Below, one piece after another: positions 22,051 to 34,550 of a DNA stretch of 64,000 nt. The stretch comes from Candidatus Zestomicrobium tamdykulense (GTDB lineage Archaea > Thermoproteota > Thermoprotei_A > Sulfolobales > NBVN01), in assembly GCA_039889305.1 (NCBI GenBank), contig JAVVFV010000005.1, positions 21,358 through 85,357 on the forward strand, written 5' to 3'. Within the stretch, counting starts at the first letter, position 1, and every line of letters starts with the position of its first letter. Under the pieces are notes generated by a model, which was given only the letters and a program-made list of their open reading frames with translations, was not told where the DNA came from and searched no databases. The position numbers and the translations under genes are program-made.

Positions 22051-22161
22051 TGCTCTACTTAAGTCATTTTCTTTACTAATACTTCCAGAAAGACTCATAG
22101 GTTGATTTTATCAAATCTGTGTTGAGAAAGGTTTTGTTTGTGTAGGGGACCCGACCGGGTG

Positions 22162-22239
22162 TGGCGGGCCCGCCGGGATTTGAACCCGGGACCTCCGGCT
22201 TAGAAGGCCGGCGCTCTGTCCTAGCTGAGCTACGGGCCC
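22162..22239 (-). tRNA. tRNA-Arg(UCU), CCA encoded
   Basis: The reverse complement reads GGGCCCG-TA-GCTC..GAGC-G-CCGGC-CTTCTAA-GCCGG-AGGTC-CCGGG-TTCAAAT-CCCGG-CGGGCCC-G-CCA. Confidence 0.92.
22223..22239. repeat. attL core: direct repeat AGCTGAGCTACGGGCCC (nt 1-17 of tRNA-Arg)
   Basis: Identical 17-mer at 33883-33899. It extends to 21 bp with one mismatch. Confidence 0.8.
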
Positions 22240-22260
22240 GATTTTTTTACTATCCGAACA

Positions 22261-22270
22261 TTTATATATT
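22261..22270 (-). promoter_or_regulatory. Putative TATA box now serving tRNA-Arg, supplied by the integrated element
   Basis: The minus strand reads AATATATAAA, 22-31 nt upstream of tRNA nt 1 (22239). Confidence 0.4.
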
Positions 22271-22298
22271 TCTTCCTCTCCTGTTTTCTTGATGAGCC

Positions 22299-23299
22299 GT
22301 GGAGAGGTTTAGTTATAGACATGCACTTTCTAAAAGAGCTCTGAGGCTATATGAAGATTACGCAGAAGTTAGGGCTTGGTTTGATGAGCTAAAGGTTTTG
22401 AGAAGTGGGAGAACAGCCCATGACTATTTGGATATGCTTGCGGGTTTTGTTGAAAGTTCTGGAAAATATCCTAAAGATTTAGTTAGGCTATCTTCCAACG
22501 AAGTATATGAAGTTTTGAGGAGATGGGCTTTATCTGAGCTTCGCAAAGGTTCCTACACCACTGGAAGACTTTACGTTTTGTGGAATGCTGTCAAAAACTT
22601 CTTAAAATTTCATGGAATTGAAGTGAAAAATAAACCGCCTTTTAAGAGAACTGTAAAATACCTGGACAAGATCCCAACGAAAGAAGAGTTAAGGCAAATT
22701 TTAAATGCGGCTTCAAGCCTTTCAACAAAAATCGCTATTGAGTTGATGTGTTATGGAGGGTTGAGACCAGAGGATATTTGTGATTTAACCTACGCAAGCA
22801 TAAAAATGATTTTGAAAAAGGAGTAAGTCCATGTGCAGTATTTGTTCCGCAGACAAAAAGCGACAGCGTCTACGTCACTTTCATACCAGAAACAACCGTT
22901 GAGCTTATTCACCAATATTTTAAGTTTAGGGAAAGCAAGAGAGAAAAAATAGTTGCTAAAAGCCCTATAATAGCTAACCCAAGATATCAAGGAAAAGGAA
23001 TTAGGAGAAAAACACTAACAGCAAAGATAGAAAGTGCTATTTCTAAAAGCGGAATTCAATCGCAGTTAACCCTTGGAAATAAGGTTCAGAGAATTAGACC
23101 CTACAGTTTGAGGAAATATTTCAGAAGCAACTTAACGGGACACGCTCCAAGCGAGTACATTGAGGCTTGGCTCGGCCACACCTCCGGATTGGAGCACGTT
23201 TACAGCGGAACAAGAGATTTAGACCCCTCCACAATTGAAAGAATGCGTGAAGTTTACAAAAGGTGCGAACCTTTCCTTTGGCCACAGCCCAACCATTAG
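22299..23299 (+). pseudogene. Tyrosine recombinase/integrase, interrupted by a single -1 frameshift near 22800-22822
   Basis: The N-terminal ORF (22299-22826) ends after the Arg-box YGGLRPEDICDL. The continuation is open in the -1 frame from 22784 and carries LRKYFRS, AWLGH and catalytic ..HVYSG. The shift lies in the A-runs ATAAAAATGATTTTGAAAAAGG. Confidence 0.8.
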
Positions 23300-24474
23300 A
23301 CCAAAATTCTCTAGTTACTGAAGCAAAAATAGAAGCCCTAAAAAGCATAGCAAAAAGCCTACTCGGCATAGATTTGCTGGAAGTTAAAATCGCTAAAGAA
23401 AAGGATGTTGGAAGAGAATTAAGCAAGGATGAAGAATTGGAGCTTTACGAGAAGGAGCTGAAAAAGCTCAGGGAAGGAAAACACAACCCACAAAGAATAG
23501 TGCACGAAAAAGAGCTTGAAAAATACTTGGCGGAAGGATGGCAATTCGTAAGTGTACTGCCCTCACGCAAAATCCTAATTAAAAAGCACAATGAATGGGT
23601 AGAAAATAATAAACTCATTTCTTGGGCTGAAAAGTTGGGCATAAAACTAAATGCAAATGGGAAGCTTGATGAAGGGCAGCTGTTTCAATTGTTTGTTCTT
23701 GCCATTTTATGGAATAACAAACCGACTTATAGAGCTGAGATGGGGGAGAAAATATTCAGGGAGATAAAGAGCGAGTATACCCTTGATAACTTTCAAAGAG
23801 CAGCTCAAGATAACAATATGGAAAATAGGATTAGGGAGATCGCAGCTGAGATCATCCGTAATACGCAAGTCTACAAATTGTTAATGTTCATTGCCAATGA
23901 AACACTTAATGGAAAAAACATTTGGACAATGATCAAAGAAATGCTTGAATTCCCCGTTATTGGCAATGAAGAAGATGATCTGAGAAGGTTAAAAGGACTC
24001 TATAAACTCTTTAACCCTCCATGCCATGATCGCAAAGCATTCCTCACTGTGAAAACCTTCATTATTTTTAGGGAAATTCGAATACAGTTTAGAGAAGTTG
24101 GAAAATATCAGTATCACCCGGTGATTTGTTGTGTTCCTGATAGTAATGTAAGAGAAGCACTAAAAGGTCTCGGTATTCTGGGTGATGTTAAAAATGATTT
24201 AAATAGCATGATAATGGCAAGCCGACTAATGGCGGACGCATTTTGCACAGAAGAATACGAGCTATACGATCTTCCTCTATTCTTTTGGCATAAAGAAGAG
24301 GGCAAATACCCTTCAATTGGATTCAGTAGCACGCAGCCAACGAAAGGCAAATATGCTGGAGTTTGCCCAAAATGCAGGTCACCTCTGGTGTGGCGTAGAG
24401 CTAAACGCACAAACGAAATTTACAGGGGCTGCACTAACTTTCCACATTGCAGATGGAACGATAGAAGCTATTAG
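23263..24474 (+). CDS. Hypothetical protein with C-terminal topoisomerase-type C4 zinc finger; central region weakly HhH-GPD-like
   Basis: C-terminus CPKCRSPLVWRRAKRTNEIYRGCTNFPHCRW matches the zf-C4_Topoisom pattern. The central LFQLFVLAILWNNKPTY...CVPDSNVREALKGLGILG is reminiscent of EndoIII-like glycosylases. The start overlaps the integrase 3' end, so the true start is uncertain. Confidence 0.55.
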   Translation: MRTFPLATAQPLDQNSLVTEAKIEALKSIAKSLLGIDLLEVKIAKEKDVGRELSKDEELELYEKELKKLREGKHNPQRIVHEKELEKYLAEGWQFVSVLPSRKILIKKHNEWVENNKLISWAEKLGIKLNANGKLDEGQLFQLFVLAILWNNKPTYRAEMGEKIFREIKSEYTLDNFQRAAQDNNMENRIREIAAEIIRNTQVYKLLMFIANETLNGKNIWTMIKEMLEFPVIGNEEDDLRRLKGLYKLFNPPCHDRKAFLTVKTFIIFREIRIQFREVGKYQYHPVICCVPDSNVREALKGLGILGDVKNDLNSMIMASRLMADAFCTEEYELYDLPLFFWHKEEGKYPSIGFSSTQPTKGKYAGVCPKCRSPLVWRRAKRTNEIYRGCTNFPHCRWNDRSY

Positions 24475-24532
24475 AACGATCTACCTGCAAGTTCATGCTT
24501 CTGTTAGGAGACATAAAAAGAAAATGGATTTT

Positions 24533-25036
24533 CTATACACTTTGCTTGGTCTCCTTTAAAGCTTCGCTGATTTGGCGATGGAAGAAAATAAAGATGATAA
24601 TTGTTGCAGAAGCTGTGTAGCTCGCAACGAGCAGCATGTTCATCATGTTAAATGCACTTAGGACGATATAAGATGCTCCTGCAATGATGGCTGCTCCAAG
24701 GATGGAGTAGATGCTTGCGGTCTTCCAGGCTCCCCATTTACGTGCAAGCTTTAGCCAACTCTTCCATTTCAGAAAGTCTTTTAACCTCAATGGCTCTGAA
24801 AAATCAGTCTCTTCAACCGCCTTGGCCAGTTGCTCATCCATCTCTCGCTTTTGAACAGCCATAACCCTCGGTAACATAGCAATACATGCCATACCTCCCA
24901 CAACGAGAAGAATAAAGGCTAAGAGGGCTTGGCCGAGAAGGGCCAAAGCAAAAACAGAGAGCATAAGAAAACCCACAATAGCCCCTACGTAATGGATCTT
25001 ATCCCGTTTTCGATGAGCCTGCCTAATGGAAAGCAC
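24533..25036 (-). CDS. Four-TM membrane protein, unknown function
   Basis: Two hydrophobic hairpins separated by a charged loop (QKREMDEQLAKAVEETDF). GTG start. Confidence 0.55.
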   Translation of the reverse strand: MLSIRQAHRKRDKIHYVGAIVGFLMLSVFALALLGQALLAFILLVVGGMACIAMLPRVMAVQKREMDEQLAKAVEETDFSEPLRLKDFLKWKSWLKLARKWGAWKTASIYSILGAAIIAGASYIVLSAFNMMNMLLVASYTASATIIIFIFFHRQISEALKETKQSV

Positions 25037-25241
25037 TACTGCAAAGACGCATAGAACAGCCAGAAAGAGAAAGGCGGATCCATTGAATATACGCCATGTT
25101 CTTTACTTCATCTTATCTAACTATTATTGTTTTTATTAGCATTTATGGCTTAGTTTTTGGTATCTTTTTGCAGAACAACATATCCGTTACGGGCAGAGTC
25201 CAGCTAATGCGCAGCTACGTAGCAACCAGGTTCTAGGTCTA

Positions 25242-25640
25242 TCAAGAATGGCGAGTGCGCTTCTCCAGTTTGTCTCCAAGGTAGGCTCCTAGTAAGTAAC
25301 AGGGTAACGCCAAGAATGCTGAGCTATCTGCACTTAAACCGAACACATGCCTTAGGGCAATCACGGAGATCCCCCATAAAAAGAAGCCAATCCAGAAAAT
25401 GCCGCCGAGGATGAAGATAACTCGACGGGTAATCTGCCATCTTCGGGGAGAGGTCCAAACGAAACGTCGGAGAGCGTAAGTTGAACCTACGAGCAACAAC
25501 GCGATGGCTGAGAATTTGACAGCTGTTTGGAGAGGAACATGGCCAGTCATATACCCCACCCACGAAATTATGACACAGAAAGTTAGAGCGATTAGACTGT
25601 AGAACAGAATTCGAGCTTTCCAGTAATTAGGCTTTCCCAT
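25242..25640 (-). CDS. Four-TM membrane protein, unknown function
   Basis: 132 aa with four hydrophobic segments. It lies directly downstream of the Cys-rich paralog. Confidence 0.55.
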   Translation of the reverse strand: MGKPNYWKARILFYSLIALTFCVIISWVGYMTGHVPLQTAVKFSAIALLLVGSTYALRRFVWTSPRRWQITRRVIFILGGIFWIGFFLWGISVIALRHVFGLSADSSAFLALPCYLLGAYLGDKLEKRTRHS

Positions 25641-25752
25641 CTTACCCTCACCTATTGTTTAAGTAAAAAAATAAAAAGGTTATGTGCATGGTTCAGACAT
25701 AGCAACTTAAGCCCACCCTCTCAGAGGTTGCAGTAGCATGTCTAAAAGGTCG

Positions 25753-26526
25753 TTACCCGCCACAACTGAGATAGCACACTATGTCACAAAAGTACCCCCA
25801 ATAGTCCCATCCGTAAGTTAACAGGTATAAACAAGCTACCAATAAACCACCGTAAGTTACAACGCCGCCAGCAAGGCATGCCGCTACTATCAACCCATAA
25901 GCACCCCAACAAGCGATATGACAGAAAAGATTACACCAGAAGTCGTCCATCAAGACTGCGGAGCTTTTGAGGATTTCTCTATCATATTCTTGTAGTTGTT
26001 TTCCTACCAGCCTAGACAGATATTTGGCTTCTTTCTCCATAGTGTAGTAGCCTTCTGCAAGTTGCATCAGCGTTTCGTCTCCGCTCTTCTCGTAGACCTT
26101 ACCTACCTCTTTGGCGACTTTGCCTAAGACGGCGTATAGTTGCGATAAAGTAACGGAAGAATTAAACTCGACAAACTCTAGTGATACGAGTTCAGATTTG
26201 CCTGCTGGCGCATAATTCATTACTGTGAAAGAGTGATTGTAGAATTCTGAGTTTTGTGGCGTAAGCGTTGTTAATAGGGTTAGGTTATATTCACGTTGCA
26301 CTATGTAGCTTAGGCTGTAGAATTGTATGGACGTTTTTTCTGCGGCGATTTCTGTGCAAACGAAGCTGGCTGTTCTGTTAATTTCATCTGTAAGTTCGTT
26401 ATAACTCCAAAGTAAAGTTTGGGTGACTGTCACTTCGTAGGCATCATCATCTACTTCATACGTTATCAGCGTTACTGTTTTGTTTTCGTTCTGTTCTATT
26501 GTTGTGGCTGTGATATTTGATGGCAT
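25753..26526 (-). CDS. Paralog of the sequon-rich domain of 26731-28137, with an 8-Cys hydrophobic C-terminal tail
   Basis: It aligns by eye to aa 200-385 of the larger protein (TVTLITYEVDD..YEVTVTQTLLW, QFYSLSYIV, FNSSVTLSQLY..LGKVAKE). The tail is FWCNLFCHIACWG...FCDIVCYLSCGG. Confidence 0.7.
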   Translation of the reverse strand: MPSNITATTIEQNENKTVTLITYEVDDDAYEVTVTQTLLWSYNELTDEINRTASFVCTEIAAEKTSIQFYSLSYIVQREYNLTLLTTLTPQNSEFYNHSFTVMNYAPAGKSELVSLEFVEFNSSVTLSQLYAVLGKVAKEVGKVYEKSGDETLMQLAEGYYTMEKEAKYLSRLVGKQLQEYDREILKSSAVLMDDFWCNLFCHIACWGAYGLIVAACLAGGVVTYGGLLVACLYLLTYGWDYWGYFCDIVCYLSCGG

Positions 26527-26561
26527 GTTAATGTTTGGGTATACCCAAAGATGTAACTCTA

Positions 26562-26723
26562 TTAAGTTTGTGTCGTTCTCTCTCGTATCAGCATAATTAT
26601 GCCAACAATAGCCATAAGTGCAAACAGAACTAGACCTAATGTTCTTTGGAATATTAGGTTTATCAACGCTCCAGAAATACCGAGGACAACCATAGACAAA
26701 GCAAGCCCTTTTGACTTCTGCAT
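26562..26723 (-). CDS. Small two-TM membrane protein (53 aa; the track ORF extends to 26786)
   Basis: MQKSKGLALSMVVLGISGALINLIF..LGLVLFALMAIVGIIMLI. The internal ATG avoids a 56-nt overlap with the upstream gene. Confidence 0.45.
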   Translation of the reverse strand: MQKSKGLALSMVVLGISGALINLIFQRTLGLVLFALMAIVGIIMLIRERTTQT

Positions 26724-26730
26724 CTGTTGC

Positions 26731-28137
26731 TTACCCCATTGGGCAGTCAATCCAACCCATAAATTCAGCGCACATGCAACAGGCATAGACGTGAGAAGCG
26801 AGACTTATTATACACGCCGAACAAGGTATTGTTATACAACCAATGCACCACCAGATAGTAAATATGGTTGCGCATGCAACAGCACACGCAGCACATGTAG
26901 CGCATAAAGGCACGGATAGATATGTTGTAAGTATCAAGCCTACGCAGAAGAAACAATCCCATATGTTGCCGCCATCTGCCAATAGTACAGAGCACTGGAT
27001 AATTTTTTTGTCATATACTTCGAGTTTTTCTTTTACTATTTTGGACAAGTGCTTAGTTTCGTCTCCTATGATGTAGTAATTTTGTGCAAATTGTCTAAGT
27101 GTTTTATCTTCGCTTTTTCCATAGGCTTTCCCCAACTCCTTGGCAACTTTACCCAACGCGAAATAGAGCTGTGATAAAGTAACTGAAGAATTAAATTCAG
27201 CAAACTCTAATGATATTAATTCAGACTTGTGTGCAGGTACATAGTCAATGATTGTGAATGAACTATTGAATGTTATAGAATTTAATTGCGTGAGCGTTGT
27301 GTGTATGGTTAAGTTGTATTCCTCATGATGAACAATGTAGCTTAGGCTGTAGAATTGTAGGGATATGTCTTCCGCCGCTATCTCTGTTGAGATGAACTTA
27401 GCTGTTCTGTTGGTTTTAGTGCTTGCCTCGTTATAATTCCACAGCAAAGTTTGGGTGACGAGCACCTCATAAGTTGTATCATTGGCTTCGTATGTTACAA
27501 GCGTTACCGTGCGTACTTCATCCTGCTCAAGCGTTGTAACCGCAATGTTTAAGGGTGTATTAGTGCTCGGAAGTTCTTGGTCTTGAGAACAGGATTGACA
27601 AACACAAGATGAGCCACTGGTTTGATATAGAAGTATAGGCTCTATGTTCGCCGATATATGTTTGCCAACAACGTTCACCGTAACATAGTGATAAGTGGTG
27701 TATATTGGGTAGCCTGCTTTTATCCATGCGGTTATTCCGCCGAGCATGTTGTAGACTTTTGTGAAGCCGTTGCTGGCGAGGATTTGGCATGCAATTTGGC
27801 TTCTTGAACCAGCCTTACAGTAAACTATTATTGGATCGTTTATATGCTCTTGCAGTTCGCTTATTCTATCTTCAAGCTCGTAAACTGGTACAAGAACAGC
27901 GTCATATAAATGCCCGAGATTGTATTCGCTCTGGTTTCTAACATCCAAAACAAGGCTTACTGTGCCTTTCTTTATCATTTTGTAAGCTGCATCAACGCTT
28001 ACGTCCTCATAAGCTCCAGCCCAAGACGCTTCAGCAAAAGCCTCAGGCACTGCAACAAAAGCAAGCAACAACACAGCCACAAGACCAACAGCAATCAACC
28101 TCTGACCACGCATCTCCAAAACAGAATAGGCCTTCAC
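26731..28137 (-). CDS. Secreted rhodanese-domain protein fused to a sequon-rich domain and a 15-Cys hydrophobic C-terminal tail
   Basis: Signal peptide RLIAVGLVAVLLLAFVAVPEAFA. Rhodanese region LVLDVRNQSEY..IIVYCKAGSRS..GGITAW. Many N-x-S/T sequons. The tail is CATCAACAVACATIFTIWWCIGCITIPCSACII..ACCMCAEFMGWIDCPMG. Confidence 0.75.
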   Translation of the reverse strand: MKAYSVLEMRGQRLIAVGLVAVLLLAFVAVPEAFAEASWAGAYEDVSVDAAYKMIKKGTVSLVLDVRNQSEYNLGHLYDAVLVPVYELEDRISELQEHINDPIIVYCKAGSRSQIACQILASNGFTKVYNMLGGITAWIKAGYPIYTTYHYVTVNVVGKHISANIEPILLYQTSGSSCVCQSCSQDQELPSTNTPLNIAVTTLEQDEVRTVTLVTYEANDTTYEVLVTQTLLWNYNEASTKTNRTAKFISTEIAAEDISLQFYSLSYIVHHEEYNLTIHTTLTQLNSITFNSSFTIIDYVPAHKSELISLEFAEFNSSVTLSQLYFALGKVAKELGKAYGKSEDKTLRQFAQNYYIIGDETKHLSKIVKEKLEVYDKKIIQCSVLLADGGNIWDCFFCVGLILTTYLSVPLCATCAACAVACATIFTIWWCIGCITIPCSACIISLASHVYACCMCAEFMGWIDCPMG

Positions 28138-28319
28138 CTATATACCTCCCTTAAATTCTGTTTTTTAGTATATAAAACTTTTGCAACTAATAATAAAACT
28201 CAATCCCAAGGCGAAACTTGCAACGTTAAAAATTTGCAATACCGCCTGTTCTGTTAGTAACGTTTAACCGAGAGGTTTAAATATTGCTGTCTTTCTGTTT
28301 TTCTGTTTGGGGGTGTGTT

Positions 28320-28760
28320 ATGGGAACTATAAGAAGTGAATATTCTATCGAGCAGTTTGAGGCTGCCCTGCAACGTTTTGCGCATCAGATTACTGACATG
28401 ATGCAGAGGATAGACAAGATGCACGTTAGTTCAGAAAAGATGGATGTCGACTTAGAATTCAGCTACGGCGTTAAAGGCGAGGTAATGAAGATATACGTGT
28501 CTTTTTACAAGAGGGATAAGCCGGACTCATGGGGAGAGTCGCTATCCTTCACAGTAGAGCCTAAAGACTACGTTGACAGCCCCCACATAACAAAAATCCA
28601 CTATGAAGGGGCAAACGACAAGCAGTACAGCGAGAAAATCCTAACATGGCTTAAAAGCCTCCTAGGCTCAGAAAAGCCTGCAGTATCCTTCTCGTTGAAG
28701 GATTTTTCAAAGAAGGTCAACAGGCGCCTTACAGACTACAAAGCTTTTTCGAAGGGTTAA
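28320..28760 (+). CDS. Hypothetical protein
   Basis: The ORF has protein-like composition and is first of three tightly spaced plus-strand genes. I prefer the start at ATG 28320. Confidence 0.5.
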   Translation: MGTIRSEYSIEQFEAALQRFAHQITDMMQRIDKMHVSSEKMDVDLEFSYGVKGEVMKIYVSFYKRDKPDSWGESLSFTVEPKDYVDSPHITKIHYEGANDKQYSEKILTWLKSLLGSEKPAVSFSLKDFSKKVNRRLTDYKAFSKG

Positions 28761-28762
28761 TC

Positions 28763-29173
28763 ATGGAATCCCTCGTAAGAATGTTTAGGGAATCCCTCTT
28801 CAAAGCATTTTATGATTGGCTTGAGAAGAATAAGACCGTTATAGGCGAGAAATGGTATGTTTATGCCTTCAACGAGGCTAAGAGGGCTGAGGATTTAGCC
28901 GACAACGCAGTAGGCATAATCGGCGCAGCCATGTGGATGTTCAACACGATGGCCAACTGCGGCGTAATGGCAGGTGTAGGCCCAAACGGATACAGCCTAC
29001 AATATCTGGAAAACACGAAAATCGACGAAGCCTCAACAAGAAGGCTCCTAACAATGATTGTGGCTTGCCTAAACCTTCAATACCTGCCCATTGAAGAGGC
29101 CAAAAAGCAAATCCCAATAATTAGCCGTGGCAAGTTTTCTCTGAAGCTTTTTGTTGAGGATAGGAAATCATAA
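28763..29173 (+). CDS. Hypothetical protein
   Basis: The ORF starts 2 nt after the previous stop. I recognise no motif. Confidence 0.5.
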   Translation: MESLVRMFRESLFKAFYDWLEKNKTVIGEKWYVYAFNEAKRAEDLADNAVGIIGAAMWMFNTMANCGVMAGVGPNGYSLQYLENTKIDEASTRRLLTMIVACLNLQYLPIEEAKKQIPIISRGKFSLKLFVEDRKS

Positions 29174-29208
29174 ATACCAGCTTGTGACATTGGGTTTATG
29201 GTGTTGGT

Positions 29209-29397
29209 ATGCCTAAGGGACCTGAATGGCTGACGGTTAGGCTGACTCCTGAGCTGATGGAGAAAATGAACTCTTATCTTCTGGCTGTGGCAAACAGAAT
29301 GGGACGCATACCCCAAGGGTTAAAAACCAGGATAGTGCATGAAGCCCTCGAGGAATGGTTCAAAAACCACGGCAGTGACCTCGAAAGGTTCACATAA
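29209..29397 (+). CDS. Ribbon-helix-helix (CopG/Arc-like) DNA-binding protein
   Basis: LTVRLTPELMEKMNSYL..., a beta-strand followed by two helices in 62 aa. Confidence 0.6.
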   Translation: MPKGPEWLTVRLTPELMEKMNSYLLAVANRMGRIPQGLKTRIVHEALEEWFKNHGSDLERFT

Positions 29398-29444
29398 CTT
29401 TTTCTATTTGGGGTGAAGCCCGTTGCCTAACAAACTCGGCTCAA

Positions 29445-29660
29445 TTATACTTTCCGCCTGTATAGCTCGCATTTCTCCGCAAAGTAGGGTGGAAGCTGGT
29501 CTGGCAGGACAGCGTTTCTGGGACACTTGTAACGTTTAACTATTTGCCCAGTGCTTGAGTCACCGCCCACCGTTTGTTCGAGAAGGCTGCAGCTCCAGCA
29601 TCGCGTCTTCTCTATTGGAACTTTAACTATGGTTTTAACCCTTCCCATGCAACCCCTCAA
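29445..29660 (-). CDS. Small Cys-containing (zinc-binding?) protein
   Basis: CWSC ... KCPRN ... KCELY spacing. It is the last gene of the minus-strand RadA/ParB operon. Confidence 0.4.
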   Translation of the reverse strand: MRGCMGRVKTIVKVPIEKTRCWSCSLLEQTVGGDSSTGQIVKRYKCPRNAVLPDQLPPYFAEKCELYRRKV

Positions 29661-29670
29661 CTTTTACATA

Positions 29671-29829
29671 TTAGGGGTGTGAAACCCGCTTCAGCCCTTC
29701 CTTAATTATTCTGTTGTATTTCTCGATGAGGGCTGAGTAGGCCTCCAAGTCCAAAGCCATCCGCTCAAGCTTCTCAGTGAGGGCCAAAAGCCTCCCATTA
29801 ACGTCCATGGTGTTGGCCCTTTTCAGCAT
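29671..29829 (-). CDS. Small helical ORF (52 aa), below the track cutoff
   Basis: My own translation is MLKRANTMDVNGRLLALTEKLERMALDLEAYSALIEKYNRIIKEGLKRVSHP. It fills the gap between the ParB-like gene and the Zn protein. Confidence 0.3.
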   Translation of the reverse strand: MLKRANTMDVNGRLLALTEKLERMALDLEAYSALIEKYNRIIKEGLKRVSHP

Positions 29830-29945
29830 TTAGGTGTTTTTCAACAGTTTCTACTGTGAGTTTTCCCCTTTCTGTGCGCCAAACTCCAGTTTTGTCTTCC
29901 ATGCCGAAAACGTCGGTTCTAGCGATGAAAATTTGGAAAAGCCTG

Positions 29946-31016
29946 TCAGCCAATGACTGGCTCTTCAAAACCTTTTTCTCCGGCCATTTTTATGGCTTTC
30001 TGGGCTACTTCCTCCCTCTCTTTTTCAGTTAGTTTTTCCCAGAAGACAACGAAGATTGATGCTTTAATGACGTCTTTCAAGTATTTGCCTTTGTATCTTG
30101 TGTATATGTAGTCGATTAGAATCATCGGGTAATGTTCTTTCAACTCCATGACTTTTTTGAAAGGCTCTTCAGGTGGCGCTGTTGCTTTCTCGGCTTCTTC
30201 TACAAGCAGAGGCTTTGGAAGATCAACAATTTTTTCAGCTAACTCTGGTTTTTGAGCCATCGCCTCAATAACCTTTCGAGCTTCTTTTGGCTTGAGTTTT
30301 TCACGTTTAACAACTTTAACGACTTTAACTGTTTTTTCTGGAGGTAAACCTTTCTCGATGGCTGCTTTGGCGAGTTGAGCCTCCCTTGTGGTTAGCTCTT
30401 CCTTCACAATAACCTCAGCTAATGCTTTCTGTTTTTCAGGCTCTATAACTGAGCCGATGATCTCGTAATGGAGGGGTGACAGCGCTGTCATCCCTGCTAA
30501 TAGCGTTTTTGCTTCCGGCGAAACCCTAACCCTACAAAGTATGCGTTCAACTTCTCTGTGGCTTATTCCAAACTTTTCAGCCATCTGGTCTATTCTCATC
30601 TTTTTAACTTCATGCAGATGGCGGAAGTATGCTGCCTCGCGAAGCGGGTCAACCGTTCCCCTCGCCTTGTTCTTCTTATAGTTTATTTCCAGCGCTTCTT
30701 CAGGTGTGCAGTCGGTTATTATGGCTCTTATCTGAGTCCAGCCGAGCTCCCTTGCGGCTCGCCAGCGTGAGTGCCCATCTACTATTTGGTATTTGGCTTG
30801 GCTCCACGGCTGCTTAGCCTTTATTTGGGCTATTTCTTCGGGTGTCAGCCTCCTTAGGAGGATTGGGTCTATCCTGTATAGACCTCTTGACTCCAGCCTT
30901 GTCATGTCTGTGCGCAGCATCATGTCCTCTTCTCTGCCTATGGCTGTGATGTTGCCTGGCAGTGGGATTATCTGCTCGAGGGGTATGTGCTCTATGCGCT
31001 GTTCACTCTGGGACAT
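29946..31016 (-). CDS. ParB/Srx-like N-terminal domain protein with HTH
   Basis: YQIVDGHSRWRAARELGWTQIRAII (ParB box) followed by HTH RIDQMAEKFGISHREVERIL. It overlaps the radA-like stop by 14 nt. Confidence 0.8.
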   Translation of the reverse strand: MSQSEQRIEHIPLEQIIPLPGNITAIGREEDMMLRTDMTRLESRGLYRIDPILLRRLTPEEIAQIKAKQPWSQAKYQIVDGHSRWRAARELGWTQIRAIITDCTPEEALEINYKKNKARGTVDPLREAAYFRHLHEVKKMRIDQMAEKFGISHREVERILCRVRVSPEAKTLLAGMTALSPLHYEIIGSVIEPEKQKALAEVIVKEELTTREAQLAKAAIEKGLPPEKTVKVVKVVKREKLKPKEARKVIEAMAQKPELAEKIVDLPKPLLVEEAEKATAPPEEPFKKVMELKEHYPMILIDYIYTRYKGKYLKDVIKASIFVVFWEKLTEKEREEVAQKAIKMAGEKGFEEPVIG

Positions 31017-31959
31017 CCTCTACACCAGCCTTTGTTATCATGAATTCCGTTGCGGCTCGTGGGAGGTAGCTGCTGGCTATGAGTGTTGCAACTCTCCTTG
31101 TTCCGGGTCCTATGGTTAGGTAGACGCGGTTTCCAATCATGTGGCTTACAACGTGTCCTCCAACAGGCGGGTTTAGAACCTCCGGCCTAACGTCATAGAC
31201 GTATCCAACGGGCGAGGCTAGAACCTGCTCGGTGGTTATGACTGCTATTCTGTAAACGCGTGCGTAGTTGAGGAGAAGCCTCAAACACCTGTTTATCAGC
31301 TGTTGTCGGGGGGCTAGAAGCTCCCTTCCAGGATATTCGGCTCTGAAGGGCGATACGAGGCTGTCAACGATGATTAGGCGGATGTTCCTTTCCCTTATGG
31401 GCTTGTGGGCGTTTTCAAGCAGGAATATCAAGTGCTCGCTGCTGTAGACTTTTGCATAATTCACCAGGGGGCATGTTTCTTCAGGGTTTAGGCCTCGAGC
31501 CTCAGCCATTTCATAGAGGCGTTTTGAGGAGAAGCTTCCCTCAGTGTCAAAGTATAATACGTTTCCGCCTAATCCGCCCTGCTCTGGCTTAAGCTGGGCT
31601 GTAACGCAGAGCATTAGGCAAAGCTGGGTTTTTCCAGAACCATACTGCCCCACAAGCTCTGTTATGGCCTGGGTTTCTATGCCTCCGCCTAAAAGATTGT
31701 CAAGGGCCTTGCTTCCAGTTGTGCACCTCAGCCTTCTTTTTGTCATTTCCCAGTGTTCGTAGGCTGTTATGAAACTGCAGCCTAAAGCCTGCCTTGCAGC
31801 CTCCACTATCCGTTGGGCAGCCTCAAGCTTTTCATAACCAGCCTTCTCCTTAACCTCCCTAGCTGGGGTGACAGCCAAAGTTTCAACGTTTGCAAAGCCG
31901 GCGTCCCTAAGCCTTTTGGCTATGGATTTGCCCACGCCAGGAATCTGCTCTAACTCCAT
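31003..31959 (-). CDS. radA: Full-length RadA-like recombinase (HhH N-domain + RecA core)
   Basis: LEQIPGVGKSIAKRLRDAGF (HhH), TTGSKALDNLLGGGIETQAITELVGQYGSGKTQL (Walker A), LIIVDS (Walker B), PVGGHVV. The ATG at 31959 lies 2 nt after the upstream stop. Confidence 0.85.
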   Translation of the reverse strand: MELEQIPGVGKSIAKRLRDAGFANVETLAVTPAREVKEKAGYEKLEAAQRIVEAARQALGCSFITAYEHWEMTKRRLRCTTGSKALDNLLGGGIETQAITELVGQYGSGKTQLCLMLCVTAQLKPEQGGLGGNVLYFDTEGSFSSKRLYEMAEARGLNPEETCPLVNYAKVYSSEHLIFLLENAHKPIRERNIRLIIVDSLVSPFRAEYPGRELLAPRQQLINRCLRLLLNYARVYRIAVITTEQVLASPVGYVYDVRPEVLNPPVGGHVVSHMIGNRVYLTIGPGTRRVATLIASSYLPRAATEFMITKAGVEDVPE

Positions 31960-31961
31960 CT

Positions 31962-32135
31962 CTAACCCTCCTTTGAGTGCGTGTGTTGGCCCCATTCAAT
32001 GTTGGTTTCTGCTATTTTGCTCCAGCAACGCCTGCAAATCGGAAGCCTATCACCCTTATAGACTATGAACACTTCTATGTCGGTGTTTCTGCATTTACCA
32101 TTCCATGGATTCCTACAACGCTCAATCCTAGACAT
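31962..32135 (-). CDS. Small Cys-rich zinc-finger-like protein (57 aa)
   Basis: MSRIERCRNPWNGKCRN...LPICRRCW. Only the C-terminal part of the 145-aa track ORF looks protein-like. Confidence 0.4.
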   Translation of the reverse strand: MSRIERCRNPWNGKCRNTDIEVFIVYKGDRLPICRRCWSKIAETNIEWGQHTHSKEG

Positions 32136-32382
32136 GTGTTCCACATCTCCTTGCTGTTTTCCAGCCGTTACCATGCAAACCAGCTTTGGCAAACTCTCTA
32201 ACAATTTCAATCTGATGATTTTGTAGAAACTCCTCAAGAGCTTCTTTCTGGCTTTGCCAATCATACTCATGGCTTGTAAATTTGCCCCAATAATGCGGAT
32301 GCCTATGCAGAAGCTGCAGGAGTAGTTTACGCTGGAGAACCGATAAGCCCTCAAGCTCCAAGCCCAAAGCTTCGGAGAGCAT
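32128..32382 (-). CDS. Small helical protein (84 aa), first gene of the RadA/ParB operon
   Basis: Protein-like composition (LSVLQRKLLLQLLHRHPHYWGKF..). Its stop overlaps the next start by 8 nt. Confidence 0.45.
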   Translation of the reverse strand: MLSEALGLELEGLSVLQRKLLLQLLHRHPHYWGKFTSHEYDWQSQKEALEEFLQNHQIEIVREFAKAGLHGNGWKTARRCGTHV

Positions 32383-32539
32383 AGGCGCTCAGCCTCCAAC
32401 CCAAAATTAGCGGTTTATGAAAGACGCTATAAAAAGGCAACGGCGAATCGACCTTTTTGAACAGTGGAGAGAGATAAGTTAAAGTGAAGTTTTGCACCTT
32501 ATTAATGCTGTATATTTAACCCTAAGGAGAAGCCGGAAA

Positions 32540-33205
32540 TTGAGTACACTTAAAAGGCAGGAAAGGAAAGCTGTGGTGACAGGAATCTCTGCAGCTGATG
32601 CAATAGACAGATATAGATATCGCCTTTCAAAGGAGTTGGGCTCAACAAAAGTTGAAGATAAAGGGCAATATGTACTTATGCATGAAAGGGTTCGTCTTCA
32701 AAACAAAGACTTTATGGACATTGTAGTTTATACAACAGACCGCATATACATATCTGCTTCTCCTTATGTGTCTGTGGAAAAATTTAACGAAGTAGCCACC
32801 AAAATTGTTCGTATAGCACAGGAAAGCGTGAAAATATTGGAGGAACTTCGTCCTATAACATTGTCAAGGGCTAAGAACATTTTGGAGTTCACTCTAAGAT
32901 TGAATGTTGAAGATGAATTTCAAAGAATGGTGGTAGTTATATTGGCTGACACAATAAATGAAATAGTTCTTAGGGAGGAAATGAAGGCAGCGGGGATTGA
33001 AGGGCCTCCTTTAGACGAGGGCATCCCTGAGAAAATAAAAAGGCTTAAAGATAAAGGAAAATTCATTCCTGAAGAAGAAGGAGTGAAAAATATTAGGGAG
33101 TTAAGAAATGGCATAGTCCACCGCGGAGACATCCCTGATAAAACTGAAGCTGCTAAGGCTCTAGAAATCACAAAAGCCGTGCTTAAGTGGTGCTTGAAAG
33201 AATGA
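32540..33205 (+). CDS. Protein with C-terminal HEPN-like Rx4H motif
   Basis: IRELRNGIVHRG sits in a helical C-terminal region. I prefer the TTG at 32540, preceded by AGGAG and a TATATTTAA box, but the track start at 32492 is possible. Confidence 0.55.
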   Translation: MSTLKRQERKAVVTGISAADAIDRYRYRLSKELGSTKVEDKGQYVLMHERVRLQNKDFMDIVVYTTDRIYISASPYVSVEKFNEVATKIVRIAQESVKILEELRPITLSRAKNILEFTLRLNVEDEFQRMVVVILADTINEIVLREEMKAAGIEGPPLDEGIPEKIKRLKDKGKFIPEEEGVKNIRELRNGIVHRGDIPDKTEAAKALEITKAVLKWCLKE

Positions 33206-33849
33206 CTGTGGAAAAAGTAAGCAAATATGAGGTAATAGTTGGTTCAGACGAGGCTGGAAAGGGCGAATGGCTAGGTCCATTGACGGTCGCAGCAGTAGCA
33301 CTTACGCCAGAGCAGAGCTCATATTTGGTTACACAAGGTGTGATGGATAGTAAGGAATTAAAAATTGATAGAATCATGGAGTTGTCTGGCATAATCAGGA
33401 AGGAATGTTTAAGCTATCATGTCATTGCCATAACCCCGAGAAAGTTTAACATGCTATTGAGGGAAGTGAAGAAGGAGGGAAAAAGTTTAAATGATATATT
33501 GGCTTGGGGACATGCTAAAGCAATATATGAAGTTTACCGGGAGCTGCAAAACAAGAAAATTTTGGGGAGAGTAAAGCTGGTGATTGATGAGTTTGACAAA
33601 TTAAAAACTGAGGAACGCTTAGGCAGGGTTCTTAAGTTAGCAAATTTTGACATAGAACAAAGACCACACGCAGAGGAGGAAACAGCAGTTGCAGCTGCAA
33701 GTATACTTGCTCGTGCAACAAGAGAATTTTGGATTGACGATGCTTCCAAGCGTTTACATTTAGATTTAAGAAAGCTTTCGGCGTCTGAAGCGTTAACCCT
33801 TAGGGATGCGGAATATTTTGCCAAAATAAGTTTTCTACATCCTATATGA
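33202..33849 (+). CDS. Type 2 RNase H-like protein, closest by eye to the RNase HIII catalytic domain (no N-terminal TBP-like domain)
   Basis: GSDEAGKGEWLGPLTVAAV, MDSKELK, ITPRKFN..LNDILAWGHAKAI, LVIDEFD, HAEEETAVAAASILARATREF. There is an ATGA start/stop overlap with the upstream gene. Confidence 0.7.
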   Translation: MTVEKVSKYEVIVGSDEAGKGEWLGPLTVAAVALTPEQSSYLVTQGVMDSKELKIDRIMELSGIIRKECLSYHVIAITPRKFNMLLREVKKEGKSLNDILAWGHAKAIYEVYRELQNKKILGRVKLVIDEFDKLKTEERLGRVLKLANFDIEQRPHAEEETAVAAASILARATREFWIDDASKRLHLDLRKLSASEALTLRDAEYFAKISFLHPI

Positions 33850-33882
33850 ATACCTATGTTCGAATAGGATTTTTCCTATCCA

Positions 33883-33899
33883 AGCTGAGCTACGGGCCC
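33883..33899. repeat. attR core: second copy of AGCTGAGCTACGGGCCC (orphan 5' fragment of tRNA-Arg)
   Basis: Identical to 22223-22239. Confidence 0.8.
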
Positions 33900-33921
33900 C
33901 TACATGTGATATGCTTAGCAG

Positions 33922-33928
33922 TTATAAA
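33922..33928 (-). promoter_or_regulatory. Putative original tRNA-Arg TATA box, stranded outside attR
   Basis: The minus strand reads TTTATAA, 23-29 nt upstream of the orphan tRNA 5' fragment. Confidence 0.4.
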
Positions 33929-33986
33929 TGCTTTTCTATGCGATAATTCATTACTGCGTTAGCTGATCATTAACAACGCGAATTCT

Positions 33987-34259
33987 CTAGTAAACATCTA
34001 TACGTGCATTCCTCAACTCAAAATACTTCACCAGAACACCAACCTCGTTCTCACCTAAGAACCTACTAAGCACTATCTTAATCACTAAACCATCACCATA
34101 AATTCCTGGACTACCCTCAAAGAAATACACTAAATCACTACCCTTCCTATGAATCAAATCATTAATATCCTTAATTACCCTCTCAGCAACCCACTGAGTA
34201 GGAATCCCAGCGATCACGATCTCCCCCTTCCCCCTAAAAATCTGTACTGACATCCTCAT
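33987..34259 (-). CDS. Hypothetical protein (90 aa)
   Basis: The ORF has normal composition. I recognise no motif. Confidence 0.45.
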   Translation of the reverse strand: MRMSVQIFRGKGEIVIAGIPTQWVAERVIKDINDLIHRKGSDLVYFFEGSPGIYGDGLVIKIVLSRFLGENEVGVLVKYFELRNARIDVY

Positions 34260-34307: not shown

Positions 34308-34363
34308 CAGACCCCCCCACCCCTCTGTTTCCACTGGAAAACTAACTAATATAAAGAAATAAA
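34308..34363. repeat. Left arm of the 56-bp perfect inverted repeat (ORB-like, G-string distal to spacer)
   Basis: CAGACCCCCCCACCCCTCTGTTTCCACTGGAAAACTAACTAATATAAAGAAATAAA. Confidence 0.9.
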
Positions 34364-34494
34364 ACTTAATTTCTAAAATTCTATATAAATAGAAAATGAT
34401 ACAAAATTAACATTAAATTTAAGCTCTCATTTATGCATATTTATAGAAAGTTTTGTATAATGATCTATATATAGAGATTATAATTTTAGCAAAA

Positions 34495-34550
34495 TTTATT
34501 TCTTTATATTAGTTAGTTTTCCAGTGGAAACAGAGGGGTGGGGGGGTCTG
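34495..34550. repeat. Right arm of the 56-bp perfect inverted repeat
   Basis: Exact reverse complement of 34308-34363, checked base by base. Confidence 0.9.

Follow-up and report, generated by a model that had tools for sequence, protein, structure and literature searches.

We analysed a 64,000-nt stretch of contig JAVVFV010000005.1 from Candidatus Zestomicrobium tamdykulense (the window) and found that positions 22240-33899 are almost certainly an integrated mobile element, which abuts the 5′ end of the tRNA-Arg(UCU) gene and carries its tyrosine integrase gene (int) right beside that tRNA. The account that best explains the locus as a whole, and which we consider highly probable, combines a site-specific insertion at the 5′ end of the tRNA, an int that has since decayed, an insertion geometry common to the integrase family, and cryptic cargo.

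The 17-mer AGCTGAGCTACGGGCCC had exactly two copies in the window, at 22223-22239 and 33883-33899, and two matches were reached in 0 of 100 dinucleotide-preserving shuffles. Similarity between the two attachment (att) repeats extended to 24 nt with 2 mismatches (22216-22239 vs 33876-33899). Counting one repeat copy, the element is 11,660 bp long, with a unique part of 11,643 bp. The flanks of the element were then searched in 40 related genomes, and the congener G001 was found to carry an empty site, where both flanks were adjacent on a single contig (left 88%, right 83% identity). In the alignment, the tRNA-Arg(TCT) of G001 was followed directly by CCACATGTGATATGCTTAGC..., the homologue of the window from 33900 onward, and the junction fell exactly between GGGCCC and C(C/T)ACATGTG, which means that the borders coincide with the repeat to the base. 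An original prediction, made from the letters of the window, had proposed a perfect 17-bp direct repeat around an 11.7-kb element, a left copy equal to nt 1-17 of an intact minus-strand tRNA-Arg, a crossover in the acceptor/D-arm 5′ part of the tRNA, and an empty site as the check; the exact repeat copies, the agreement of ARAGORN and Rfam on the tRNA, and the G001 junction bore out all of this. The genes flanking the element encode an archaeal fructose-bisphosphate (FBP) aldolase/phosphatase and a triosephosphate isomerase (TIM), and the host genes beside it (1167, 389 and 247 aa) were intact. No second att-like core or arm motif was found inside the element or elsewhere in the genome, so nested or tandem integration was rejected. 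About 410 bp outside attR, the right-hand att site, we also observed a long inverted repeat of about 243 bp (34308-34550) with a 79% match to its own reverse complement.

The composition of the element was foreign to the genome. Its unique part had a tetranucleotide L1 distance to the genome of 0.353, compared with 0.110 ± 0.038 for 172 same-size genome windows, and only 1 of these 172 tiled windows was more deviant (C33, with a G+C of 0.525). None of the five sub-blocks of the element fell below the 98.6th percentile, whereas the two flanks were ordinary, so the discontinuity expected at the repeats was indeed present. The clear signal came from the tetranucleotides and not from G+C, which alone was weak: the whole element had a G+C of 0.431 against 0.413 for the genome (92nd percentile), the stretch at 28.3-32.4 kb reached 0.456-0.483 (at least the 97th percentile), and both ends, at 0.39-0.40, were at or below the genome mean. 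The earlier impression that the element is richer in G+C than its flanks thus holds for the centre and fails for the ends. The 10.3 kb of cargo DNA had no match in the 40 relatives except a weak radA cross-match.

The insertion concerns a tRNA gene that the host can hardly leave silent. tRNA-Arg(TCT) is single-copy in the host assembly (G000, 94% complete) and AGA makes up 48% of the Arg codons in 530 long open reading frames (ORFs), which means that this tRNA decodes the commonest Arg codon and must be expressed. Upstream of the tRNA, the empty site carries GAAAAGC-ATTTATAA, a sequence that now lies beside the orphan 17-mer at attR; this native promoter is contiguous with the tRNA in G001 and travels with the tRNA in another congener, G003. 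The sequence now upstream of the tRNA is GGAAGAAA-TATATAAA. It contains a 10-nt box, AATATATAAA, at -31 to -22 (22-31 nt upstream of tRNA nt 1, plus strand 22261-22270), where the original prediction had placed it inside the element. We made a crude scan for the most A+T-rich 8-mer upstream of all 37 tRNA genes of the host genome, and its centre had a median position of -31.5 (interquartile range -34.5 to -28.5), often after a purine-rich stretch. By the same scan the TATA box of the element was centred at -28.5, within the host range, and its spacing was close to that of the displaced native box. The 59 bp that separate the tRNA from int held no other TATA-like element, and none of the element's minus-strand genes was positioned to read through into the tRNA. 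Judged from position and spacing, the TATA box of the element probably drives tRNA-Arg, in agreement with the prediction that the element would have to supply the tRNA promoter. Since the box is quasi-palindromic and also lies about 30 nt from the int start, the simplest reading would be a bidirectional promoter for the tRNA (minus strand) and int (plus strand), with a purine-rich stretch resembling a B recognition element (BRE) on each side. A bacterial sigma-70 and terminator scan of the spacer was uninformative for an archaeon.

Some further observations concern the native promoter and the tRNA gene. The stranded promoter (33900-33940, minus strand) points into the right end of the element, and could drive an antisense transcript that would start with the 17-nt tRNA fragment and continue against the RNase HII-like gene (33187-33849). 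A block of about 230 bp with tRNA-Arg(TCT) and its native promoter (22060-22239 plus 33900-33990) lies between the TIM gene and a 90-aa ORF only in G000 and G001. The congeners G002 (L004) and G007 (L007) have the intergenic region without this block and carry the identical tRNA elsewhere, and the tRNA of G003 carries 38 nt of the same native promoter. The tRNA-Arg(TCT) gene has thus itself changed place within the genus.

The integrase ORF started with GTG at 22299, 59 nt after the repeat, and the read-through protein matched the Pfam Phage_integrase family (PF00589, E 9.2e-13), so the prediction of a tyrosine integrase just inside the left repeat was correct. The catalytic motifs GLRPED, KSDSVYV, RPYSLRKYF and LGHTSGLEHVY were present in the window int and in its homologues. 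As a correction to it, the gene is not intact but a pseudogene. Its first frame stopped at 22824-22826, after the first catalytic Arg, with the remainder of the catalytic domain (K, RPYSLRKYF, LGH...Y) in another frame up to a stop at 23297-23299. Intact homologues were about 431 aa long with 64-89% identity, about 100 aa longer than both window pieces combined. Alignment of the int DNA of the window with that of three related loci showed that 1 nt is missing at about 22807, following an A5 run (alignment column 676), and another at about 23277, in a T3 run (alignment column 1147). The natural stop after ...ILIKKH was lost as well, and the C-terminal 100 aa were found in the first 109 codons of the ORF at 23263-24474, whose remainder is a zinc-ribbon gene. 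Taken together, the two deletions and the lost stop set the window int apart from four related loci. Standalone homologues of the zinc-ribbon protein had about 27 extra N-terminal residues relative to the window copy, so the 3′ end of int has been joined by a deletion to its truncated neighbour. Three independent lesions next to intact host genes argue for real decay and not an assembly error, and we regard the lesions as likely to be real. With two frameshifting deletions and a fusion deletion in int, the element is most likely locked in place; the original prediction had left "cryptic or defective" as an alternative, of which the defective branch turned out right. Programmed frameshifting was considered and rejected: neither site had an X XXY YYZ slippery heptamer, there were a second frameshift and the fusion deletion, and the homologues were single ORFs.

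Homologues of int were absent from 52 genomes of the host's family, from IMG/VR and from phage records, and a tblastn search with the homologue P0002 against 72,556 plasmid records gave only 3 weak matches to Rhizobium integrases (22.6% identity, E about 1e-3). The relatives came from metagenome-assembled genomes (MAGs) labelled Bathyarchaeia, Methanomethylicia, Hadarchaeota and Nitrososphaerales and from metagenome contigs. For the geometry of the family we used 46 loci including the window, all with at least 42% identity and usable upstream sequence. In 44 of the 46, nt 1 of a divergent tRNA was 49-73 nt upstream of the int start; ARAGORN called the tRNA in 40 of these 44, 1 had an evident intron-containing tRNA, and in 3 the contig ended inside the tRNA. 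The CTATCCGAACATTTATATA block between tRNA and int was nearly invariant. That the tRNA 5′ geometry is family-wide is, on the strength of these loci, open to little doubt. Confident target tRNAs included Arg(TCT, GCG, CCG), Lys(TTT), Pro(GGG) and His(GTG). The host genome has ten further tRNA genes in which the 16-nt 5′ sequence recurs with no more than 1 mismatch, which explains the breadth of targets. A side observation was made at L025:9900-10001 (ERZ27245617 k141_69498), where an intact int is preceded by an 11-nt tRNA 5′ sequence, ACTACGGGCCC, within apparent coding sequence; the integration here may have gone off target or into a secondary site.

The att sites of the family could be compared in some detail. 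The first 28 nt or so of the spacer (consensus gA-TTTTtcCTATCCGAA-CATTTATATA) were nearly invariant in 22 loci, whose int coding DNA was only 74% identical. attR was found for five elements: the window element (11,660 bp), L026 (2,241 bp), L032 and L061 (3.6 kb each) and L068 (4.9 kb). The last of these belongs to the tRNA-Pro subfamily, and only its att repeat defined its limits. In the window element, L026, L032 and L061, attR was preceded by the palindrome TTCG(G/A)ATAGGA-TTTT-TCC(T/C)ATCC and then [AT]GCTG(A/G)GCTACGGGCCC, and the right-arm motif of the window was also seen within the remnant L038. In L026 the identity of attL and attR was only GCTACGGGCCC (11 nt) and the flanking mismatch segregated in the expected way; both strand exchanges are thereby confined to tRNA nt 1-11. 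Because tRNA nt 1 lies 49-73 nt from int, with CTATCCGAACATTTATATA between them, attP, the att site of the free element, would lie upstream of int and not inside it. It would consist of the palindrome, about 24 nt of tRNA-like 5′ sequence, and GATTTTTCCTATCCGAAC with the TATA box, followed by int. TTTTTCCTATCC is directly repeated on either side of the att core, and the arm repeats are candidate binding sites for the integrase (Int). We also noted the arrangement at L053:880-995 (Ga0123519_10020968), where an intact int has no tRNA body upstream and the sequence reads ATACGGGCC-TATTTTAATAAATTCAA-ACTGAGCTACGGGCCC-GTTTTAATCTATCCGAA. It resembles the predicted attP (arm repeat, core, arm repeat), on a contig without terminal overlap. 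Two small sister elements had the same att arms as the window element: that of 2.2 kb at L026:3364-5604 carries int, a 74-aa ORF and a PIN-domain protein (a PIN toxin pair), and that of 3.6 kb at L061:9944-13537 carries a degraded int, an ArsR-like helix-turn-helix (HTH) protein and ferredoxin-like ORFs.

Structure and domain comparisons placed the integrase near XerA and outside it. The best sequence match in the PDB was Pyrococcus XerA (4a8e). The AlphaFold2 (AF2) model of P0002 had a mean predicted local distance difference test (pLDDT) score of 72.5; its best Foldseek matches were archaeal XerA (5hxy, 4a8e), and XerA, integron integrase and lambda Int were all matched with probability 1.00. 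The NCBIfam XerA equivalog NF040815 gave 63.6 bits against a cut-off of 220, so the integrase is not XerA. By model and matches, it is a two-domain Xer-like recombinase of a separate family, about 431 aa long with a C-terminal extension of about 100 aa. PF00589 was the only domain in the window read-through protein and, by precomputed annotation, in its homologues, distant members of which also had PF02899 or PF13495; PF16795 (Phage_integr_3) was absent from both the read-through protein and the homologue annotation. The absence of PF16795 and an int that is not split by integration indicate that the integrase is not of the SSV or pTN3 type. The start codon of int follows 59 nt after the end of the att core, and the whole int lies on one side of the core, here and in 44 related loci; int thus stays intact on integration, with att outside the ORF. 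A split SSV-type integrase was also looked for and rejected, since the frame upstream of the int start has two stops between core and start, and no int(N) runs through attR, the right-end ORF being an RNase HII-like gene whose end falls 34 nt short of attR. Comparison with SSV-type and pNOB8-type families had been suggested for this integrase: the SSV type can be dismissed, and the integrase is not demonstrably a member of the pNOB8 family, which is delimited by SiLiX at identity of at least 30% over at least 60% of length (PMC8371274), but belongs to a separate Xer-like family.

The nearest parallel in insertion site is found in the suicidal, SSV-superfamily integrases of pTN3 type in plasmids and integrated elements of Thermococcales (pTN3, TKV4). 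They use the 5′ part of tRNA genes as attB; the tRNA is rebuilt intact, cut from its own promoter and, as described, then expressed from the integrase promoter (PMC8371274; PMC5495485). According to a 2021 review, targeting of this half of the tRNA is "unique in archaea" to them (PMC8371274). The window element likewise targets the tRNA 5′ end, rebuilds the tRNA and removes the native promoter. However, the pTN3 attP, of 41-43 bp, lies inside int (PMC5495485), so that int is split, the identity block reaches the anticodon, and PF16795 is present. In the window element, attP would lie upstream, int is whole, the block is 11-17 bp (within tRNA nt 1-17), and PF00589 is combined with an Xer-like core-binding domain and the C-terminal extension; apart from the three weak Rhizobium matches, there was no BLAST-level similarity to any plasmid record. 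The pNOB8-type/XerA-like integrases (Supfam25-02, XerA/XerC/pNOB8, Badel et al. 2021) share the two-domain Xer-like fold and the unpartitioned int, whereas the present family, set apart from them by their descriptions, uses the tRNA 5′ end and not a 3′ part or dif site and has the C-terminal extension. The cryptic integrated elements of Thaumarchaeota (PMC6563490) are similarly integrase-bearing, att-bounded and tRNA-inserted, without virus or conjugation hallmarks and with a median att of 17 bp. They include CalSub-E1, the single thaumarchaeal case at a tRNA 5′ end (Krupovic et al. 2019, PMC6563490), whose primpol/S3H replication genes, going by its description, have no counterpart seen here. 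Bacterial elements in reversed orientation at tRNA genes (Zhao and Williams 2002, cited in PMC6563490; Williams 2002) are, as far as those citations describe them, also rare users of the 5′ side that supply upstream sequence, but they occur in bacteria and have integrases of unrelated lineages.

The features of the element are collected in Table 1. The original prediction had counted roughly 20 ORFs, of which only about 14-16 are credible genes. The core domain of the zinc-ribbon protein had about 12 relatives among 1.84 billion representative proteins and a conserved CCVPDS...YELYDLPLFF motif; its AF2 model (pLDDT 78) had no Foldseek match at E ≤ 0.001 among solved structures beyond zinc ribbons. 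A helix-hairpin-helix (HhH)-GPD glycosylase fold for this protein was not supported, as the model matched only zinc ribbons. In the membrane/secreted cluster, the tandem paralogues at 25753-26526 and 26731-28137 (minus strand) have a 94-nt stretch in common with 77% identity and no family match except the rhodanese domain of the 468-aa paralogue (PF00581, E 2.4e-18), which also has a signal-like N-terminus and a Cys-rich hydrophobic tail. The ParB-RadA module (29946..32399) had a G+C of 0.48 (99.6th percentile). The RadA of the element was 44% identical to the host RadA (contig C9) and 60-70% identical to its best relatives, which include a Jordarchaeales MAG. The RNase HII/HIII-like protein matched PF01351 (E 2.5e-23) and TIGR00716 (E 8e-27, below the cut-off), and neither it nor the 237-aa orphan had a PADLOC match; across the whole cargo, defence annotation gave no meaningful PADLOC match. 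Exact look-ups for proteins identical to the RNase H-like and ParB proteins returned no record.

Table 1 Features at and within the integrated element, in order along the window
Feature	Position	Strand	Evidence and remarks
tRNA-Arg(TCT), intact	22162..22239 (ARAGORN/Rfam start 22162/22165)	minus	ARAGORN; Rfam RF00005, 72.5 bits; nt 1 = 22239 abuts element
attL identity block	22223..22239		tRNA nt 1-17, reaching 22216 with 2 mismatches
Left arm, 59-bp tRNA-int spacer	22240..22298		CTATCCGAA at 22250-22258; quasi-palindromic TATA box TTTATATAT at 22261-22269
Tyrosine integrase pseudogene, 431-aa family	22299..23589	plus	Three-frame translation, homologues P0001-P0009, DNA alignment, PF00589
N-terminally truncated zinc-ribbon gene	23590..24474	plus	Helical domain and Topo-I-type C4 zinc ribbon (PF01396); in-frame fusion to int 3′ end
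Membrane/secreted gene cluster	24533..28137	minus	Membrane proteins of 167 aa and 132 aa; 257-aa, 74-aa; 468-aa paralogue
Orphan ORF	28284-28760	plus	No family match
Orphan ORF	28763-29173	plus	No family match
Orphan ORF	29445-29660	minus	No family match
ParB-like protein	29946-31016	minus	Pfam, NCBIfam
RadA, full-length	31003-31995	minus	HhH and Rad51 domains; NF003301, 313 bits; overlaps ParB-like gene
Cys-rich ORF, 145 aa	31962-32399	minus	
237-aa orphan overlapping start of 220-aa RNase HII/HIII-like protein	32492..33849	plus	
Right arm of element	33859..33882		Palindrome TTCGAATAGGA-TTTT-TCCTATCC; also continues tRNA D-arm mimic; candidate Int-binding site
attR identity block	33883..33899		17-nt orphan copy of tRNA nt 1-17
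Stranded native tRNA-Arg promoter	33900..33940	minus	TATA box TTATAAAT at 33922-33929 = -30 to -23 in tRNA sense

By Pfam, PHROGs, NCBIfam and PADLOC, the cargo had no match to Rep, primase-polymerase, MCM, Orc1, capsid, portal, terminase or VirB4/TraG-type proteins, in accordance with the earlier statement that no replication initiator, capsid or conjugation gene is recognisable. The element is att-bounded and integrase-bearing and has no virion, conjugation or transposase hallmarks. Because no replication, virion or conjugation genes are recognisable, it fits the class of cryptic integrated elements of Krupovic et al. 2019 (PMC6563490), as a decaying member. Fourteen cargo proteins were also compared by tblastn with the 94 other loci carrying int homologues (L025-L118), and nothing but one weak ParB match was found. 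Thus, since the cargo is not shared with sister loci, the conserved unit is the int-att cassette and the rest is variable freight.

Several observations weigh against the account given here. Two of the 46 family loci (L025 and L053) have only an 11-16-nt tRNA 5′ fragment beside int; the anticodon calls other than the confident ones (Arg(CCT), Ile, Val, Ser, Cys, Ala) are uncertain, coming from ARAGORN in intron mode; for no family member was a free circular form with attP recovered, and terminal overlap was seen in 0 of 21 contigs tested; and both frameshifts of the window int lie in short homopolymers, a pattern that some sequencing errors give. This last point, the loss of a single base in the A5 run and in the T3 run, together with att repeats that are still perfect across 17 bp, could mean that the element is still mobile, with a functional integrase made either because the frameshifts are homopolymer errors or because they are bypassed by ribosomal or transcriptional slippage. 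We consider this quite improbable, since there are three independent lesions, one of them a deletion of the int stop together with about 27 codons of the gene that follows, which no homopolymer artefact explains. Host genes on the flanks show no such damage, neither frameshift site fits a slippery heptamer, and other copies of the family are pseudogenised too (P0010, P0024, L061, L038).

Decay of int being the preferred reading, the nature of the element could still be seen differently. It may be a plasmid or virus that integrated and has replication or morphogenesis genes too divergent to recognise, for which the zinc-ribbon helical protein, the RadA-ParB pair and the orphan ORFs would be the candidates: the ParB-like and RadA genes suggest DNA maintenance, several ORFs lack a family match, and the fold of the zinc-ribbon protein is confidently predicted and unmatched among solved structures. 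We find this unlikely, because none of the four annotation sources gave a replication, capsid, terminase or conjugation match, IMG/VR, the phage records and the PLSDB plasmids contain no relative of the int family beyond the weak Rhizobium hits, no backbone other than int and att recurs across the 94 other loci, and sister elements of 2.2-3.6 kb are too small for replicons. A native variable island that is not mobile, with a terminal repeat that arose by chance or is a duplicated tRNA fragment, would agree with the positional variability of tRNA-Arg and its promoter among congeners. But the borders match the repeat to the base in the empty-site comparison, the integrase directly adjoins attL, conserved arm sequences recur at the ends of elements with unrelated cargo, and the composition is foreign; the probability left to such an island is negligible, and it is effectively refuted by the empty site, the composition and the family geometry.

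For a mobile element that was inserted site-specifically and then decayed, we propose the following history. The element would have entered the Zestosphaera-like Desulfurococcaceae chromosome of the host by a tyrosine-recombinase crossover between an attP just upstream of int and the single tRNA-Arg(UCU) gene there, within its first 11-17 nt. Because the crossover was at the 5′ end of the tRNA, the tRNA body would have stayed on the left and the native promoter would have been carried 11.7 kb off to attR. From then on the conserved 59-bp int-proximal spacer of the element would have preceded the tRNA, and from its TATA box int and the tRNA would be transcribed in opposite directions. Afterwards, int would have decayed by two 1-nt deletions and been fused by deletion to its truncated neighbour.

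We did not find the family described in the open-access literature, and it is widespread and apparently undescribed. We lean slightly towards the broader view that it is a new archaeal integrase lineage, non-suicidal, Xer-like and present in several phyla, which would have become a specialist for the initial 11-17 nt of tRNA genes (GGGCCCGTAGC... or GGGGCCGTGGG...) and would keep attP in the int promoter, so that each integration would swap the promoter of a tRNA, at this locus a single-copy and heavily used one, for a conserved bidirectional promoter of the element. As the target is common to several tRNA genes per genome and recurs beside family members in several phyla, the cassette would on this broader view move unrelated cargo between Bathyarchaeia, Methanomethylicia, Hadarchaeota and Thermoproteota, and after int decay the host would depend permanently on the promoter of the element for an essential tRNA.

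Within the window the biology is modest, the element being a dead and cryptic island, and the interest lies in the family. The locus and about 45 relatives represent a second, mechanistically different solution to targeting the tRNA 5′ end, with attP in the int promoter, an unsplit int and an identity of 11-17 bp, in lineages (Bathyarchaeia and others) whose mobilome is almost uncharacterised. The family is also a compact, testable system of one protein and roughly 60 bp of DNA, which could be used to learn how the acceptor/D-arm end of a tRNA gene is recognised by an integrase and in what way one archaeal TATA box can serve two divergent genes. At this locus, an integration cassette would have been transferred across class and phylum boundaries, and a host tRNA would have been left dependent on foreign promoter DNA.

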